From assembly GCA_000165345.1 (NCBI GenBank), contig CM000435.1, positions 512,001 to 576,000 on the forward strand: 64,000 nucleotides of DNA, written 5' to 3'. Position 1 is the stretch's first letter; every line of letters starts with the position of its first letter. Under the pieces are notes generated by a model. That model saw only the letters and a list, made by a program, of their open reading frames with translations, made no database searches and was not told the origin of the DNA. The position numbers were made by a program, and so were the translations under genes. Shown piece by piece: positions 3,260 through 31,071 of the stretch.

Positions 3260-6200
3260 CTAATTCTTATCAATAGTGATTGTATAAGTTTTCTTATTTT
3301 CTCTCCTTAATTGCCACTCATCTGTGTTTTTACACGAGATTTTAACAACTTTAAGTCTGTAATATAATGAGCAGCTCAGTGTTCTTGGGGGGAGTTCAAT
3401 GAGATCTATTGTTTTGATACAATTTCCTGAAATCCCGAGCAAACCACCTAATAGTCCTGACTGAGTACATTGCCAAATCCTTAGAGCCTTTTCTACTATT
3501 GAGTACGAAGCGAGGAACTCACCCTCTTTATTAAAACACAACGCATCAACTTGTTGTGTATGTCCCTGTAGTACTCTCCACTTTGTTGCAGTTCTAAGAT
3601 CATAAACAATAATTGAACGATCGAAGCCTATTGCAAATCTTTGTGTATTTTGATGGAAGGTAATCATTGGAAAAGCGCTAACTAATATGAAAAGAACGGA
3701 TGTGACTGCTGTTATTGTTCCTTTGCGTAGTGTGGAGTCAAGTGGATCTAAGAATCCAATAGAAATATCGACCACCATATTTAAATAGGGAAAAGAATAT
3801 TCAGGGAGACTAGATACAAAATATACCAATAATGATAGTACGTTGCAAGTATAGTTTATTCCCATATAGGGATATGCTGTTCTTCCGGCATATCCAAGTA
3901 TATAAATGTATGTTTTTGGATCCAACTGGCCAATTAATTGAAGTAAATGTCTACAAGAAGTCCAAAATGGTGGGTATTGAGCCAACGTGAGCAATCTTAT
4001 ACAAAGGCAAATAATACTATTCGAAACCTTAGTGCTCACATTTTTTTTATTGTTTTTTTGTTCTATTTTGTCACTTAAACTTCCGCTATCCACTTGGAAA
4101 ATATGAGCTGCTATGAATATGTTATTTTCCCAACTAGTAAGACTGTTTCTAAGTAAGTTAGGAACGCATGTATTTTCAATATTTTTTGCTTTTAGAAGAC
4201 TTGTAAAGTTAAGAGAAAAAAGCTCCAATGCAAAAAGGAATCTCAAAGTATCCATAATGCTAATATTATTGTAATAAGAGTTTATATCATAATTTAGGTT
4301 ATCTTTGTATCCAGTGGCTTTAAAACTTCCAGTGTTCCCTAAACTTGAAGTGTTGACTATAATATTTGATTTACTAGAGTCAATGTTTAGGTTTTCCCAA
4401 GAATACCACTGTTCAGTATCATGTCTTCTGGCATATATCGGTTTAAGTAATCTCTTCTTTTCTTGTTGTTTCTCAAAATTCTTTGAGAACTTGATAATAA
4501 TTTCAATATCATAAGTTGTTATGATACTAATCAGAAATGAAAGAATAATCTTTCCTATACAAGCGCTATGAGTTCTTTTGAAAGGATGTTCATATAGAAC
4601 AATACTTAAAAAAAATAGCGAAAGATCTTCTATGCTTAAGTTTGAACAGTAATATTCGCCAGAGTTCATTATTGGAAAGGGAAGTCTATAACCTATCATT
4701 CTGCAAAGTGAAATACTACAGTATGAATAAATTTTAGGATGACCACGCCTGCATGATTCATTCCATGGAGGAATACTTTTTATTTCACTCCCCAGAGTAG
4801 AACATAAAGATCCTCCAACATCCATGTTACTTGAAGTTATGACCTCCTGCTCCAGTAAATGCAAAGACTCATCCTTATTTTCTCCGTTTGTTCTAGGTGC
4901 TGAAATTCTTAAGAATTCTTTAATAATACCAGAAAGAGTATCAATTGCTATTTCTTCGCAATAAGACAATACTTCGCTTGGGAGAGATCTAATAGCCAGC
5001 TGTAAACAATATTTTGCAGAAAGCCTCAAATATGGATTAAATACATCCAATGTCATACCTGTAATTGAAAAGAGATGGAATGGAATAAATCTAATTAAAA
5101 GTTTTTTTTGTTCAACATGTTCAATTATCCACGATAGTAGGAAATTATCCAAAAGCTGTATCGGTAGGTCCAAATTAGAATAATAAGTAAAGTAGTAATG
5201 TAAAATAACCATTTGAAGAGCAATCTGGTGCGCTGAAAAGTGCTCCTGAAGTTCTCTTGATGTATCTTGCTTTCTAAAAGATTCTATTTCATCTTGGTAT
5301 TCTAAGTCCTGTCTAAGTTCGCAAACACTACAGGAATCCACAGGATTTTCAGTTCCAAATGTTTTTTCATTTTGATTTTTAAAGTTTTGGAATTTTTCAT
5401 TTAGGGCTTTCTCACTAATATTTCTCTGGCTTAAAAATCTTTCAAGCCAAATTTTGTCTGAAGCCTCAAAACTAGAGAATACCTCGGTTTGACCATTAGA
5501 AAAGTTTAGGGTTGATTCGTATGTTCTTGATCTAAACAATGGTGCTGAATTTTCACTAGAATCTATAGGTTCTCTTTTTATTAAGTTTCTAGAATCAAAA
5601 GTTTCTCCTCTTTGAAGTGTTGAAGTTGAATTTAAACTTTCCTTTATATTATGTGGGAGCTTCGAATTTTTTCTATTAATACCAGAATTTCTGGATCTGA
5701 CTATTCTATTTACTAAATGAGAGGTACATGGAATTCCAGATAACTCGCCAATATAATAGTCATTTGTATCTATCTCTAAATTTTTTTTCCTTCCTGGTAA
5801 TCTACTCCATTCGAAAAATGGCCTCCCAGGGCAGCTACTAATAATGCTCTTATTATCTGAGATATTTAACCTGTTTTTTAAAGTTCTAACGGAAACTGTT
5901 TTAGTATCCAAATGTCTCATGATATTCTCACTCCAGTTTTCAGAAACTAGGTACCTATATGGAGGAATTCCAGTTCCATCATAAGTATGGGATCTGATCA
6001 TAGATTCCCTTGTGCCAGAATATATACTTCTAGAACGATCAACAGATTCGCATCGCTTTCCATTTCCTTGTTTATTCCTTTTTGATAGGTTGAAATAATA
6101 ATCCACACTGTTCCATATCTTCAGTCTTAGAGACAATTTTGAACTATAAGTCTTCTTTTTTAAAATATTGCAAATTGGGATAGAAATAGCATAATTCACA

Positions 6201-10060: not shown

Positions 10061-10204
10061 TACTTTTTCTATTAACAAAATGAAGTTTTCATTCACCACA
10101 CAATTATAGATGGATCTAATACGAAAAAAAAGCGGCGCCAATATGATTTTTCGAAGTACTTGGTATACAAAAATTCTCGGAAGTAGATTACTTCGAAATT
10201 CAAC

Positions 10205-24623: not shown

Positions 24624-25220
24624 ATGCGTTCAATCCTCTTCTATTTCATCCTATTGTTTTACCCAATTTCGACTTCATTGGGGAAAGAAAGCGAATTATT
24701 TTGGAAGGTGAAAACTAATTTAATACTTACTACTGATGCTAGATTCGAAGGAGCCCAATTATGTACATCATTGGAAGATGAACTTATGGAAAATGCAGAG
24801 GGTAGCGATATAAAATATGAGGAGAATAATGCTTTGGATTACAATTTAAATTCAAATAATATGATAGAGCTTGTTGTTACGAATTCAAAAGAAGAGGAAG
24901 TTACACTCTTTGTTACCGATGCTGTTTATAATTTGATTTACAAAAAGAAAGATTTAAGAAAAAACCCAAGTATATTTCATAGACCAAAATTCTCAGAAAG
25001 CACAGATGAGTATCAAAATAATAATGTATCTCAAGAAGTAGAGCCCACTGGAAGAATTGTATACATTAAAAAATATTATTCACCTGATGGTGCAAATAAA
25101 CATTTACCAGTTATTCAAAAATTTAATTATTCAAATATTCAGTTTTCCATTAATTCAAGTTCTGTGTCGGTTTCTGCGATGAATACTTTTAATTTTACAA
25201 ATGGTTCTGGAAATGAGTAA
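24624..25220 (+). CDS. Small secreted protein, unknown function
   Basis: 198-aa ATG ORF with an N-terminal signal-like MRSILFYFILLFYPISTSLG and several NxS/T sequons. No family recognised. Confidence 0.5.
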   Translation: MRSILFYFILLFYPISTSLGKESELFWKVKTNLILTTDARFEGAQLCTSLEDELMENAEGSDIKYEENNALDYNLNSNNMIELVVTNSKEEEVTLFVTDAVYNLIYKKKDLRKNPSIFHRPKFSESTDEYQNNNVSQEVEPTGRIVYIKKYYSPDGANKHLPVIQKFNYSNIQFSINSSSVSVSAMNTFNFTNGSGNE

Positions 25221-25550: not shown

Positions 25551-28292
25551 CTATTGTAAGTATTCATCAACCTTAAGGTAATCATTCATATTGTTACCAA
25601 ACTCTGAATTTGATCCAAAGTTAAATTTAGAGCTATCAATTATGGCCTCCCTAAAGTTTTTGTCTAGATGGGTCATAGCTGTTGTGTGAGGTCTTTTTAA
25701 CTTCTTAGTTTTGCTATCCTTTTTAGGATTATTTATTTCATCTTCAGAGATGAAATTTGGCGAGCCAAGTAAGATTTTTTTCTTGAATGCAGTTGGCGTT
25801 GTCTTTAAATCAGCTTCGACTTGGTCTTTTTTATCAATAGCATGCGCAATTCTCTTTATTTCAGCCTAAAATTAAAATGATAGAGTAAAAGATATTATTT
25901 TGAAATAGTGAACTAACCTCTCTAGCTAATTTATCTGTCTTTTTAATAAACTCAGGATACATAGACTTTTCATAATTTCTTAGCTTTTGAACTTCTTCAT
26001 CTGAAACTTCAATCTTACCAATCTTCTTATCTGGGGATTTTAATTTTAAATTTGGAACATCTGATGATCTATCTAATGGCAATAGTTGAAGTTTAAATTT
26101 ACGACGATTATGTTCATCATACTCCTCTCGAAGCATTTTCTCTCTTTGTTCCATTTCCCATTCCACTAATTCATCATCATTTGCAGATATAGGAGGAAGT
26201 TCTTTAATTAGTACATGCCTTCTTGCTAATCTAGAATCAAGAGGATCCTCAAAGCTACCTTTAATCCTTTCAGCTTCTATTAGTTCGTTTCTGATTGAAT
26301 TAAGAGTATACTCAAAATCACCCATATTAGGTAGTATTCCTGATGAAGATAAAATAATTAGCTCTTCTACCGGAACTCCTTTGATATCAGGAATATCTTC
26401 AAACTTTAATTGCGGAAACAATTGCCTAGAAAGATGAATATTGAAAAGTTGAGAGTCTCCCGGAAGTGGAGCATCTTCTTTTTTGAGCATTTCCTCAATG
26501 AACTCTAATCTTTGTTTTAGATCTAAATTCATATTTTCATTTTCATTACTATTAAGAGCTTCTTTTATTGCTTTTGGAGAAATGTATTTGTTTGGAGAGA
26601 AGGTGATCATTGGAAATTCGCTATCATATTCACTTGACCATTCAATAATTGCGTTTTTAAGATCCGAGAGAAACTTTTGTTTTGCTTTCCTGGATTTCCT
26701 TCTTAAAAAAATATTTTTAAAACCCTTAGAGATCGATCTGGTCAGTGAAAAAGGCCTATCTTTAACTGTGAGTAAATCTCTTCTTTCCGCGATTAAAACT
26801 TTAACATCTTTCTTTGGTCCCGGATTAATTGAAATTAGATCTTTTAACTAAAAAGTATTAGTCTTGAAAAATAATAAACTGATCATACTCACCTCAGGTT
26901 CCAATATATTTGAGCGATGTAGAGGTAAAATACTCCGAATATTTTTAGTATTTGAATCCAATTCAAAAAAGTGAGCTAAGTAATCAGGAGGATTCACTCT
27001 ATCGCGCTCATAATCAAAAATGGGAAAATCACCCCAGAAGTACTCCTCGACAATATCTCTGATTCCATCGGGAGTATACCCTAATGGCATATCTAATACT
27101 GCCATATCTTCATCATTTAATGGGTCATTAACTCCTTTTCTTACATTTCTAAATGGAGAGCCTGCTGTTTCGAACATATGTTGTGCTTCCTGAGAAGTTT
27201 CAATAACTAAAATCAAGAGTATAAATAAAATCTAATAATGTATAACCACTTACACTCTAACTCCTGATCATGCTTTAACTGCCTCGATTTCATTTCTGAC
27301 AAATCTATGTCACTCTGTTGATATCCTTTAAGTTCAGGATGACTACGAATTGCTATTTTCCTCGGTTTACCAATTTCATATGGATATTTCAATATCCTTT
27401 CTTCTCCAGGTTCAATCTAATATAAAATTTCTAGCTAGATTCTTAATTTTCAACAAAAACAAACTTACCTTTTTATATATTTGTGTGTCATCCCATACTT
27501 GAATCTGTTCTTCTTCTGGTTCTATTATTGAAAATTCTTGTTCCTCTATTCTTTCCTTAGTCTTTTCTTTCCTAAATGCATTTTCAATTGCAATTCTATT
27601 TTTTTCTCTTTCAACAAAATCTTCATTTTCGAGAATTTCCTGAATTGATGAAAGCGATTAATAATATATTGTAGATTTCCGTATACTTACAAGTCTTATA
27701 TCTAAAGGGCGTGACCCATCAGTAACTTGAACTCCTTGATCTTCACCTAGGCTCAATGTTGAAGACACAAGATTAAAAGATCTTTTATCTTGATTTGAAT
27801 TAATTGCTTTGGAAGCGTATTTTTTTTGATTAACATAATTTGATTTTTCTTCATTATTTGAAGGAAAGACTTTAAATTGTCTTTGTTGTAAATTTAAAGT
27901 TGGACTGACCATTTTCAAGGACCTATGCTGTTTTCCAGTTTGTTGATTGCTATTATCGCTTAGTGGCTTTGATGCATTATGTTTTTTAAAAATTGAAAAA
28001 AATCCTGATTTTCCTGTGGCAGGTTGATCAATCTTTGAAATAGTGTTCGATTGTTTTACGTAATCATTTATTTGCTCATCACCTTCAAAATCAATTTTGG
28101 ACTCAGGCCCTAATAAACTAAAACCAGCAAGGCTAGTTTTGAAATTCTCATTTTTTTTTTCGTTAGAATATTCACTTGTTTCATTACAAAATATCAATCC
28201 TGATTATTTAAAGTATATTATTGATATTAAATCAAACTACTTAACTCACCAAGAATGTAGAGTAAAACCAGCGGGGCAATTCTACAATTCAT
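25551..28292 (-). CDS. Seven-exon gene encoding an 814-aa signal-peptide protein of unknown function
   Basis: Exons 28292-28250, 28199-27691, 27639-27469, 27416-27254, 27206-26893, 26847-25918 and 25865-25551. The six introns are 50, 51, 52, 47, 45 and 52 nt, with donors GTGAGT, GTAAGT x3, GTGAGT and GTTAGT. The reading frame is preserved at every junction, and the junctions link four track ORFs. N-terminus MNCRIAPLVLLYILGLIFC. Confidence 0.7.
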
Positions 28293-28400
28293 GTTTTTGA
28301 AGATACCAGACTATATAAACATTATTTTTAGGTTATCTTAGCTCTGCAATTTCACTCTCTAGCCTATACATGCATAAATCTAACAATCATTAGCCCGCCG

Positions 28401-28409
28401 TGGCGCCAA
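28401..28409. promoter_or_regulatory. E2F-like TGGCGCCAA site in a divergent promoter
   Basis: cccgccgTGGCGCCAAtac, lying between the gene starts at 28292 (-) and 28588 (+). Confidence 0.3.
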
Positions 28410-28587
28410 TACAATAGTGGCATGCTTTGTGATTTTATAATATAGTAAAGAGGTTGAATATAAACAGCAAATAAAAGGAAAGTAGTAGATTTAAATAGAT
28501 AGGGGTATTGTATATGCAAGAAATAATATTGCAGGATTAAATTTACAAAGATAATTAAGTAAATAATGCTTTGAACATTTTTTTGAA

Positions 28588-31071
28588 ATGGAAGAAAAAT
28601 TAGACTTGAAGTCCAAATATGAAAAGTTGAGAAAAAAATACGCACAGCTAAAGCAACAAACAGTAGCTTTAAAAGAGTCATTAGAAACTAAGGAGAGTGA
28701 ATATAAATGTCTAAAAGTAAGTTTTGAAGAGCTAGAAAATACACATAAAGAATGTATTTCAAGACTTGATGCTTCGCAATACAAAGAAACGCAACTAAAA
28801 AGAGAAATAGAAGAAATAGTATGCCAACTAGAACAGTTTAAATCGCATGGAAACACAAAGCAGGATCAACCAGTTTGTCCAAATGGTAAAACCGGACAGG
28901 GGATTTTAACAGGGTTGCTTCCGATGAATGGGGTGATAATGAACTTCCAGAAAAATGAAAAATTGGAAGAGAAAGTTAAAGTTCTCCAAGAAGAACTAGA
29001 TTTAAAAATTCTCGAAAATGAACAGCTACACATCAAAGAATTTGATTTGAAAAGGCAACATCAAAAAGCAATTGAAGAACATCTTGCTGATAATGAAAAA
29101 CTTAAAAATGAAATAGAGAATTTGAATTTAGAGATTAATGAATTAAAGCTAAAGAGGGGAAACGAAGATGGCATTATAGATGAAATAAAACAGCTTAAAG
29201 AAAAAGATAAGGTTAATAGCCAAAAGATTAATGAATTATTGGAGAACAATTGTCAGAATGAAAACACTATTAATATTAAGCTAAATATTATGAGAAAGTT
29301 CATTCCCAGAGTCAATCTTTTACAACTAGAAGAAGAACATTCATCTTGGGCAAATATTTGCAAACAAAAGAATTGTTTTGCCTTTCTTAAGTTAGAGTCT
29401 TTAGTTTCTGAATTTCTCAAAAAGATATTAATTGTTGTTGAAAACTGGAGCAATTACATCAATTGCTATATATCAAAGCCCTCTTTACAAGACAAAATCA
29501 CTGAGCGTATTTACAAACAAATACTTATTCTTCTTAAAGAAGGGAATAAAGATTTAACAGATCTTTCCGGGGTAATTTTTCAAAACGGATTCATTTTGGA
29601 GCAGAATATTTCCGAATCAGCATTAAGTTGTATGAACGATCGAGATCAATTTAATAGCATAGAGATCAAAGATATATTAGTTGAAAGGTCAATAAGCGCA
29701 ATGATGTCAATTAAAAATGCACTAAGTTTACAAATTATTGCGTTTAAAATGGAATTTCATAAATTATCCGGATCAAAATTAGCATTTGAATTTCAAAATG
29801 AAAACAAAAAAGCTATCGAAAGATTATTTATTATTATTAGGAATTTACGAAAGTATTTACCCAAACTCAATTGCCTTTTTAACTTTGCTCTAAATCTTGG
29901 AAGAAAACCTGACTTAATCTACTCACACACTTTACGGACAAATTCATTTTATGTTGCGTTCATAGAATTGAGAAGAGAAATAAAAAATCAATTTGATAAC
30001 ATTTGCGTTGAAGTAGAAGAGAAAAAACAATTTTTTGATTTCGTGAAGAGAATATTGATAGAAGATGTAACTCTACAAGATGAAAATATATCTCTGAGCG
30101 AGTCATTTATCAATTCTCACAAAAAAATAATTGAATTAGAATCCATGAGGAAAATTTTACACTCAAAAATAAATTTTAAGATAAAAAATATCATTGAGCT
30201 CATTTCAACAGAATTAAACGATGCCTGTAGGATTTTTGAGTCACTTTTTTTCTCAGATAATATCGCTCATCCATTCTTCAGTGAAACCTCAAAAGATATA
30301 AAAAGCTCCTTCTTCGATTCTATAGTTGATCTATTTTGCTTACTAAATTGCAATAAAGAATTATTTATGAGGTTGGTTTCTTCACTGTATCAACATCCAT
30401 CAATAACTTGTCAAAGTAGCAATAATCTCAGTGAACTACAGATTAATATGAGAGAAACGAAAAGCAAACTCGAAGCTGCCCCTCCAAAGATAACACTTCC
30501 GGAATTGCATATTCTAAATAAAAGAATAGAGCAACTTGAGGAAAGTAAAAATGAACATCTTAAAACAATAAATAATCTAATGAACCAACTCAATACTGTA
30601 AATGAATCTTCAAACTTAAATGATCATAAGTCTGATTTTAAAAATGATTTGACATCTACAGAGATAATTCCTGTAAATTCAAGTTCAGAACCCAGTAAAA
30701 TATCAGAATTGAAGAAACAAAAGTGCGGAAACCAACCTCAGAAATATATTCATGAAGTTTTTGAATCTCAACTTAGAGAAGCAAATGAAACACTCGAAAA
30801 TACTGTAACTAGATTGCAGCATAGAATTAATGATCTGAATGATGATATTGAAGTAACCAGGCAGTCTTATGACGAACAAATTTCTCTATTAAGCCAGCAT
30901 ATCTGTTCGCTATCTGAAAAACTTGCGCTAACAGATGCATCCACATTATCATCTTTCAACCAAGAAATACTTTGTTATTCCTGTGAAAGCTGGTCCACAC
31001 TCGATTTAATTTTGAATAAAACAAAAGGGGCCTGCCAAAAATGTAAAACCAAATTATTAAGGCTAAAATAA
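28588..31071 (+). CDS. PPP1R21: PPP1R21-like coiled-coil protein (KLRAQ / TTKRSYEDQ family) with an extra C-terminal Cys4 motif
   Basis: 827-aa ATG ORF. N-terminal KYEKLRKKYAQLKQQ compares with human GKYQKLAQEYSKLRAQ, ENEQLHIKEF with ENERLHIQFF, and near-C-terminal EVTRQSYDEQISLLSQHICS with TTKRSYEDQLSMMSDHLCS (human sequences recalled from memory). Confidence 0.65.
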   Translation: MEEKLDLKSKYEKLRKKYAQLKQQTVALKESLETKESEYKCLKVSFEELENTHKECISRLDASQYKETQLKREIEEIVCQLEQFKSHGNTKQDQPVCPNGKTGQGILTGLLPMNGVIMNFQKNEKLEEKVKVLQEELDLKILENEQLHIKEFDLKRQHQKAIEEHLADNEKLKNEIENLNLEINELKLKRGNEDGIIDEIKQLKEKDKVNSQKINELLENNCQNENTINIKLNIMRKFIPRVNLLQLEEEHSSWANICKQKNCFAFLKLESLVSEFLKKILIVVENWSNYINCYISKPSLQDKITERIYKQILILLKEGNKDLTDLSGVIFQNGFILEQNISESALSCMNDRDQFNSIEIKDILVERSISAMMSIKNALSLQIIAFKMEFHKLSGSKLAFEFQNENKKAIERLFIIIRNLRKYLPKLNCLFNFALNLGRKPDLIYSHTLRTNSFYVAFIELRREIKNQFDNICVEVEEKKQFFDFVKRILIEDVTLQDENISLSESFINSHKKIIELESMRKILHSKINFKIKNIIELISTELNDACRIFESLFFSDNIAHPFFSETSKDIKSSFFDSIVDLFCLLNCNKELFMRLVSSLYQHPSITCQSSNNLSELQINMRETKSKLEAAPPKITLPELHILNKRIEQLEESKNEHLKTINNLMNQLNTVNESSNLNDHKSDFKNDLTSTEIIPVNSSSEPSKISELKKQKCGNQPQKYIHEVFESQLREANETLENTVTRLQHRINDLNDDIEVTRQSYDEQISLLSQHICSLSEKLALTDASTLSSFNQEILCYSCESWSTLDLILNKTKGACQKCKTKLLRLK

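Follow-up and report, generated by a model that had tools for sequence, protein, structure and literature searches.

A six-intron gene on chromosome 7 of Cryptosporidium parvum: genus-wide conservation, an unsupported "kinesin-like" name and a candidate secretory-pathway product

On the minus strand of Cryptosporidium parvum chromosome 7, within a 64,000-nucleotide (nt) stretch of contig CM000435.1 (assembly GCA_000165345.1, positions 512,001 to 576,000; hereafter the window, whose coordinates are used throughout), the region 28292..25551 was divided in the 2004 annotation into fragments, one of which received the name "kinesin-like protein". Do these fragments belong to a single gene and, if so, what kind of protein does it encode? 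We found one gene of seven exons and six introns, running from ATG to TAG and encoding 814 amino acids (aa), whose structure is kept throughout the genus and whose product could enter the secretory pathway.

Gene structure and existing annotation

The gene model was recomputed by a splice-site scan, in which donors of the form GT[AGT]AGT were located and followed to an AG restoring the frame. Between 28292 and 25551 there are exactly six such donors, each with a frame-restoring AG 45-52 nt on, and the seven exons, once spliced, give an 814-codon coding sequence that has no internal stop and ends in TAG. Retention of any one of the six introns brings in an in-frame stop within 8-19 codons, and 4/6 intron lengths are not multiples of three. 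The intron phases are, in order from 1 to 6, 1, 0, 0, 1, 0 and 0, and the introns have an A+T content of 73-81% versus 67% in the exons.

The sequence-only reading, an earlier examination of the letters of the window, had proposed this same model, and its coordinates, seven exons, preserved frame, 45-52 nt introns, donor consensus and exon-1 peptide were all reproduced by the recomputed splicing. It had also described the acceptors as pyrimidine-rich tracts ending in AG: the AG ends stood, and the tract before them proved to be A/T-rich, mainly T-rich, in all six introns. The features of the locus are as follows.

25551..28292, minus: whole gene, corresponding to C. parvum CPATCC_003402 / cgd7_2213 (older fragments cgd7_2210 and cgd7_2220)
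28250..28292, minus: exon 1, 43 nt, encoding MNCRIAPLVLLYIL and the first base of the Gly15 codon; most of the predicted signal peptide
28200..28249, minus: intron 1, 50 nt, GTGAGT..CAG, phase 1 after codon 14
27691..28199, minus: exon 2, 509 nt, with the end of the predicted signal peptide and the variable region
28186-28199, minus: end of the predicted signal peptide, through about Cys19, within exon 2
27703-28185, minus: variable region, aa 20-180, within exon 2
27640..27690, minus: intron 2, 51 nt, GTAAGT..CAG, phase 0
27469..27639, minus: exon 3, 171 nt, where the conserved body begins; predicted long helix at aa 182-217
27417..27468, minus: intron 3, 52 nt, GTAAGT..TAG, phase 0
27254..27416, minus: exon 4, 163 nt
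27207..27253, minus: intron 4, 47 nt, GTAAGT..TAG, phase 1
26893..27206, minus: exon 5, 314 nt, with the highly conserved block AGSPFR...LDMPLGYTPDGIRDIVEEYFWGDFP
26848..26892, minus: intron 5, 45 nt, GTGAGT..TAG, phase 0
25918..26847, minus: exon 6, 930 nt, with the most conserved block of the protein
25866..25917, minus: intron 6, 52 nt, GTTAGT..TAG, phase 0
25551..25865, minus: exon 7, 315 nt including the TAG stop
26483..26851, plus: antisense open reading frame (ORF) of 122 aa, beginning with TTG; a side effect of the exon 6 sequence and no gene

The antisense ORF had already been set aside as an artefact by the sequence-only reading, rightly in our view: it lies entirely within exon 6 on the opposite strand, a stop interrupts it in C. 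ubiquitum, and in C. xiaoi it is broken.

C. parvum QOY40539.1 (CPATCC_003402) and WRK33393.1 match the 814-aa product residue for residue, and 22.7 kb of the window DNA has 100% identity to C. parvum CP141124.1, where it lies at about 568-591 kb. CPATCC tags belong to the IOWA-ATCC re-annotation, which contains the identical 814-aa model, and the gene structure is therefore already in the public, curated record; this re-annotation comprised 1926 gene-model updates, and its authors report support from RNA sequencing (RNA-seq) for 100% of the introns (PMC8744675). A splice-aware reconstruction from the raw sequence reproduces the curated model exactly, which is a validation and not a discovery. 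Beyond that, the present analysis contributes three results: grounds for rejecting the "kinesin-like" name, a minimum age for the introns and a division of the protein into two parts under different selection.

The older Iowa II annotation (2004) split the gene in two. The first part, cgd7_2210, is the 249-aa "kinesin-like protein" fragment (XP_628395.1/EAK90249.1) and corresponds to the ORF at 25861-26610 within exon 6; exon 5 is probably the source of the second, cgd7_2220. The supplements of Tandel et al. 2019 (PMC6877471) list cgd7_2190 as guanylate kinase, cgd7_2200 as uncharacterised, cgd7_2210 as "Kinesin-like protein" and cgd7_2220 with no product name. They also contain a Cgd7_2213, again called "Kinesin-like protein", which is probably the later merged identifier. 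The position of this neighbourhood on chromosome 7 is anchored by two published landmarks, cgd7_2320, a thioesterase (XP_628405; PMC6568194), and cgd7_2430, eIF5 (PMC7840661). Our literature search found CPATCC_003402(0), XP_628395, EAK90249, CMU_034270 and cgd7_2200-2240 in no main text, and the supplements of PMC13241007 and PMC13419397 have no entry for the gene.

Conservation across Cryptosporidium

The orthologue set includes C. hominis (ChUKH1_05040 / GY17_00002018), C. meleagridis (CmeUKMEL1_04255), C. ubiquitum, C. canis, C. felis, C. xiaoi, C. bovis (a fragment) and C. muris (CMU_034270). Exon structures were recovered by exact spliced matching of deposited proteins to their genomic loci. 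C. hominis, C. tyzzeri, C. meleagridis, C. ubiquitum and C. canis have six introns at the same aligned positions and in the same phases, with lengths of 43-53 nt. C. xiaoi has the same six, of 48-78 nt, and a doubtful seventh near the C-terminus with a non-consensus GTGAGG donor. In the gastric C. muris, whose protein is shorter (710 aa) and has 32% identity, all six introns recur with unchanged position and phase, and there is an extra seventh intron (5163-5217 of the DS989731.1 stretch examined; 55 nt, GTAAGA donor, phase 1), which splits a conserved motif between MPLGFTPQ and GLEDLV. This additional intron is absent from all the intestinal species examined, reflecting either a loss in the intestinal lineage or a gain in C. 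muris.

Codon 14 is followed by intron 1, in phase 1, in all the species compared, C. muris included. Orthologous introns differ in length by non-multiples of three; intron 1, for instance, measures 49 nt in C. hominis and 50 nt in C. parvum, and such a 1-nt indel would be tolerated only in non-coding sequence. The locus thus behaves as a spliceosomal multi-exon gene: removal of GT..AG segments restores the frame, and the positions and phases of these segments are conserved while their lengths vary. All species examined have the gene order PPP1R21-like / 814-aa protein / small signal-peptide protein / guanylate kinase / ataxin-10-like. The orthologues share this order, the six introns, a signal-like N-terminus and a body with invariant motifs; they differ in that identity to the C. 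parvum protein falls from 94% (C. hominis) to 32% (C. muris) and the N-terminal 160 aa are barely alignable.

A comparison of intron positions among relatives had been suggested by the sequence-only reading as a check of its model, and it returned the same six introns in seven other species, C. muris among them. On these alignments the conserved splice pattern goes far beyond chance, and it indicates an intron set at least as old as the genus, predating the split between gastric and intestinal species.

Could the locus nevertheless be a set of small separate genes, as the 2004 annotation had it (cgd7_2210, cgd7_2220 and ORFs such as 27658-28197)? Prokaryote-style calls on several assemblies do give separate ORFs of 179, 122 or 109, and 249 aa, and the expression values of cgd7_2210 and cgd7_2220 lie about 2 units apart; however, these two fragments share one stage profile, the stretches by which the ORFs run on into introns lack conservation, and the curated annotations of C. 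parvum, C. hominis, C. tyzzeri and C. meleagridis all give a protein of 814-816 aa. Conserved positions, phases and gene order rule this reading out, and we consider it extremely improbable. The single spliced unit of the sequence-only reading was therefore upheld, in agreement with the RNA-seq support that the IOWA-ATCC authors report for their introns.

Some deposited models depart from this structure. The 841-aa model of chipmunk genotype I (ELE39_001102) contains two insertions, GKLSNFINSNIILQK... and CKLFINHLISILLSFQV, exactly at the positions of introns 1 and 4 (alignment columns about 14-29 and 371-386), and it was probably read through these two introns. The N-termini of the C. felis and C. 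xiaoi models appear shortened.

The protein and its probable role

The precursor of 814 aa has a mass of 94.6 kDa. It begins with the n-region MNCR, a 15-residue hydrophobic core (IAPLVLLYILGLIFC) and then NETSEY, and this N-terminal segment provides the sole 19-mer with a Kyte-Doolittle mean above 1.5. Every orthologue has an uncharged N-terminal core of 9-15 residues; that of C. muris differs in sequence (MKLCIFIFLLTILLVLANG) and shows a canonical MKLCIFIFLLTILLVLA in front of NG. The flanking charges favour translocation of the C-terminal part. Judged by a heuristic on hydrophobicity and charge, the segment has the composition of a classical signal peptide for the endoplasmic reticulum (ER), in which a short, positively charged n-region precedes a hydrophobic h-region of some 7-15 residues and a polar c-region with small residues at -1/-3, with no further membrane span. 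Across the orthologues we found no second hydrophobic segment, no KDEL/HDEL and no conserved RxLx[EQD] motif. After the leader there is no cysteine, Lys and Glu together make up 20% of the residues, and the only two N-glycosylation sequons, Asn20 and Asn89, are both near the N-terminus.

Beyond the leader the protein falls into two parts. Conservation is poor over residues 20-180, a basic stretch with an isoelectric point (pI) of 9.2, and good over residues 181-814 (634 aa), an acidic stretch (pI 5.4) in which many Pro, Trp and Asp/Glu positions are invariant. The most conserved block, ERRDLLTVKDRPFSLTRSISKGFKNIFLRRKSRK (aa 431-452, encoded in exon 6), is basic and contains three RxxS sites. 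No internal repeats emerged when six sub-regions were aligned with hhalign, which gave only overlaps between adjacent pieces. Structure prediction with AlphaFold2 gave no confident fold: the full-length run (9 sequences) reached a predicted local distance difference test score (pLDDT) of 42.9 and a predicted template modelling score (pTM) of 0.22, and a run on residues 286-486 (8 sequences including C. muris) reached a pLDDT of 41.7, both with isolated helices only.

The same two parts are seen in the pattern of selection. The ratios of nonsynonymous to synonymous substitution rates (dN/dS), estimated by the Nei-Gojobori method with C. parvum as reference, are:

C. hominis: 1.48 for aa 20-180, 0.26 for aa 181-814
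C. tyzzeri: 1.04 for aa 20-180, 0.25 for aa 181-814
C. meleagridis: 0.91 for aa 20-180, 0.22 for aa 181-814
C. ubiquitum: 0.46 for aa 20-180, 0.13 for aa 181-814
C. canis: 0.66 for aa 20-180, 0.10 for aa 181-814

The gene therefore has a two-part architecture, with a near-neutral stretch of about 160 aa ahead of a 634-aa body under purifying selection. Taken whole, the gene has a dN/dS of 0.41 in the comparison with C. hominis, and none of the 10 local genes has a higher value.

Then, we asked how far the family extends. A Pfam-A hmmscan of the 814-aa protein returned 0 families at E<=1, and across 11 orthologues at E<=10 no family was shared by more than one member; there were four unrelated single-member matches, the best with an E value of 0.11. 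A profile search with 9 orthologues against all Protein Data Bank (PDB) chains gave 0 matches at E<=10. These empty searches agree with the sequence-only reading, which had recognised no family. Furthermore, a hidden Markov model built from nine orthologues was run with HMMER, without a word prefilter, against 1.84 billion cluster representatives. It found 10 matches: the C. parvum/C. hominis cluster, C. muris (E=9e-110), a C. bovis fragment, and short pieces of unnamed ORFs that align closely to single exons of the gene. No named match fell outside Cryptosporidium in this search, and two word-indexed searches returned Cryptosporidium only. The gene is present in single copy per genome, and no paralogue was detected. 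At the sensitivity of HMMER, the family is thus restricted to Cryptosporidium, with orthologues in both the intestinal and the gastric clade, and the lineage restriction proposed by the sequence-only reading is borne out.

The gene is expressed, and its mRNA is sporozoite-biased. In the bulk RNA-seq of Tandel et al. 2019 (supplementary file 5, PMC6877471), cgd7_2210 has values of 6.86/6.59/6.84 in excysted sporozoites, 4.68/4.85/5.17 at 24 h and 3.98/3.91/3.78 at 48 h, which we read as log2 after the log2 fold changes of the figure legends, the header of the sheet giving no units. The trend across stages is the same for cgd7_2220, and Cgd7_2213 is included in the sporozoite-specific sheet of supplementary file 8, among the genes that are upregulated in sporozoites and that in vivo females do not share (PMC6877471).

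What could such a protein do? The reading we favour, with a probability of roughly 0.6, is that of a genus-specific secretory-pathway protein, probably carried as cargo by a sporozoite secretory organelle. The data establish the gene structure and its conservation, the restriction to the genus, the two-part selection and the sporozoite-biased mRNA, from which we infer ER entry, cleavage site, compartment and a role in interactions. The N-terminal segment encoded across exons 1 and 2 would act as a signal peptide and direct the protein into the ER, where cleavage near Cys19 would leave a soluble lumenal protein of roughly 92 kDa. The variable, almost neutral stretch of about 160 aa would serve as a spacer, and the acidic body of 634 aa, rich in helices and proline-containing motifs, would carry the function, most probably in protein-protein interaction. 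The protein may act in a sporozoite secretory organelle (a dense or small granule, or a rhoptry) or, after discharge, at the parasite-host interface. The sequence-only reading had suggested a secretory-pathway protein; the conserved hydrophobic segment and its signal-peptide charge pattern make such entry plausible.

There are known proteins with which this reading can be compared. Candidate criteria for DG8 (cgd8_5300) were a signal peptide, high predicted disorder and a high transcript level (PMC13241007). Of these features the 814-aa protein has a predicted signal peptide and a disorder-like, low-confidence structure prediction, and it has no recognisable domain; no sequence similarity to the dense-granule, small-granule and rhoptry proteins defined by hyperLOPIT, DG8 among them, was detected. 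It is one of many uncharacterised genus-specific Cryptosporidium proteins with a predicted signal peptide. Should it reside in a secretory organelle or at the host interface, the conserved part would offer a candidate marker or target for the whole genus.

Several observations weigh against the secretory-cargo reading. The signal-peptide call depends on hydrophobicity and flanking charge only. The mature protein, cysteine-free, of mixed charge, with its two sequons near the N-terminus and three RxxS sites, would suit a cytosolic scaffold equally well. The body, conserved as far as C. muris, is more conserved across the genus than expected of an effector and is held more tightly than in typical host-directed effectors. 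Finally, sporozoite mRNA is weak evidence for organelle cargo, because many housekeeping neighbours show the same enrichment and are on the same list.

It is also conceivable, if unlikely, that the N-terminal segment is an uncleaved signal anchor, which would make the product a type II membrane protein of the ER, the Golgi or an organelle, with a lumenal body, and not a secreted cargo. Coherently with this, the core of 15 uncharged residues in C. parvum and C. muris is at the upper limit for cleavable signals, and the strong conservation of the body suggests a housekeeping role inside the parasite. However, the C. canis and C. felis models have a core of no more than 9-12 residues, too short for a membrane span, C. 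muris has a canonical small-residue site, VLA-NG, and no retention or retrieval motif accompanies the segment.

More speculatively, the body might be a hitherto unrecognised module, structural or for interactions, that only Cryptosporidium has and that belongs to a compartment found in this genus alone; examples would be the small granules, the feeder organelle and the layered interface of host and parasite. Its six or seven ancient introns would then have been kept for expression in an intron-poor genome; we hold this to be rather improbable.

A further alternative dispenses with secretory entry. The hydrophobic N-terminus would be incidental, or would associate peripherally with membranes, and the body would be a cytosolic or nuclear scaffold regulated by phosphorylation. 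The body, without cysteine, of mixed charge and rich in helices and disorder, is compatible with this, as are the three RxxS sites, of the type used by basophilic kinases, in its most conserved basic block, and the AlphaFold models show no compact lumenal domain. Against it, the hydrophobic N-terminus is kept in every orthologue despite divergence in sequence, and the flanking charges favour an orientation with the N-terminus inside and the C-terminal part translocated. A leader begun in exon 1 and preserved across an intron throughout the history of the genus would also be hard to explain if it had no function. We judge this scaffold to be distinctly improbable, and secretory cargo remains the reading we prefer.

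Last comes the identity given in the databases, a kinesin-like motor or cytoskeletal protein, for which the chance is close to nil. The name belongs to the 249-aa fragment XP_628395 of 2004, was copied to its orthologues and has nothing else in its favour. It now stands on records of C. tyzzeri, C. ubiquitum, C. canis, C. felis, C. xiaoi and C. bovis (TRY50328.1 and XP_628395.1 are among the records so named), having spread from the fragment to the annotations of at least seven species. The kinesin motor (PF00225) was absent from all 11 orthologues in the Pfam comparison described above, and a regular-expression scan found no P-loop (GxxxxGK[ST]), no switch I (SSRSH) and no switch II (DxxGSE). 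The PDB profile search was empty despite the many kinesin structures available, and an N-terminal signal peptide does not fit a cytoplasmic motor. The likeness to the kinesin superfamily is thus one of database name only. With Pfam, motif scan and PDB profile all negative, we rejected the identity at the sequence level; the name is unsupported and should be dropped.

Promoter and neighbouring genes

Upstream of the gene lies a PPP1R21-like gene (28588-31071), and the two share a divergent promoter of 295 nt (28293-28587). This promoter contains one conserved block:

28363..28409, no strand assigned: GC-rich inverted repeat (TGGCGCCACGGCGGG) and, after it, TGATTGTTAGATTTATGCATG; upstream of the ATG by about 70-115 nt

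The block is recognisable in C. hominis, C. ubiquitum, C. canis and C. xiaoi and, more loosely, in C. muris. It takes the form of a perfect palindrome, CCGCCATGGCGG, in C. xiaoi and of CCGCTTAAGCGG in C. muris; the arms of the inverted repeat remain complementary while its centre varies. The repeat could be the site of a dimeric transcription factor or a hairpin in the 5' untranslated region.

The hexamer GGCGCC, which we take to resemble the E2F-like motif reported for Cryptosporidium promoters, occurs in the window 6 times against 1.05 expected, and 0/100 shuffles reach 6. The sites are at 10134, 10455, 23765, 28402, 37136 and 62108. By comparison with the ORF list, they lie in, or at the edge of, gaps between long ORFs, which are likely promoters. 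Matching text for the motif was not found in PMC1779779.

On the other side, the convergent neighbour cgd7_2200 (24624-25220, plus strand) encodes 198 aa with a signal-like N-terminus, MRSILFYFILLFYPISTSLG, and has no Pfam match on record. Its product is 92% identical between C. parvum and C. hominis, with a dN/dS of 0.30. The gene keeps its syntenic place in all the species as far as C. muris, whose protein measures 173 aa. It is a putative second uncharacterised secretory protein beside the 814-aa one.

Further along the window, the span of the Ost5-like gene (80 aa, about 16.3-16.6 kb) is about 61 nt longer than its product, and that of the ataxin-10-like gene (584 aa, about 21.8-23.7 kb) about 155 nt longer, from which it follows that both contain introns. 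In line with the 18 introns that the sequence-only reading counted in the window, this stretch of chromosome 7 looks relatively intron-rich.

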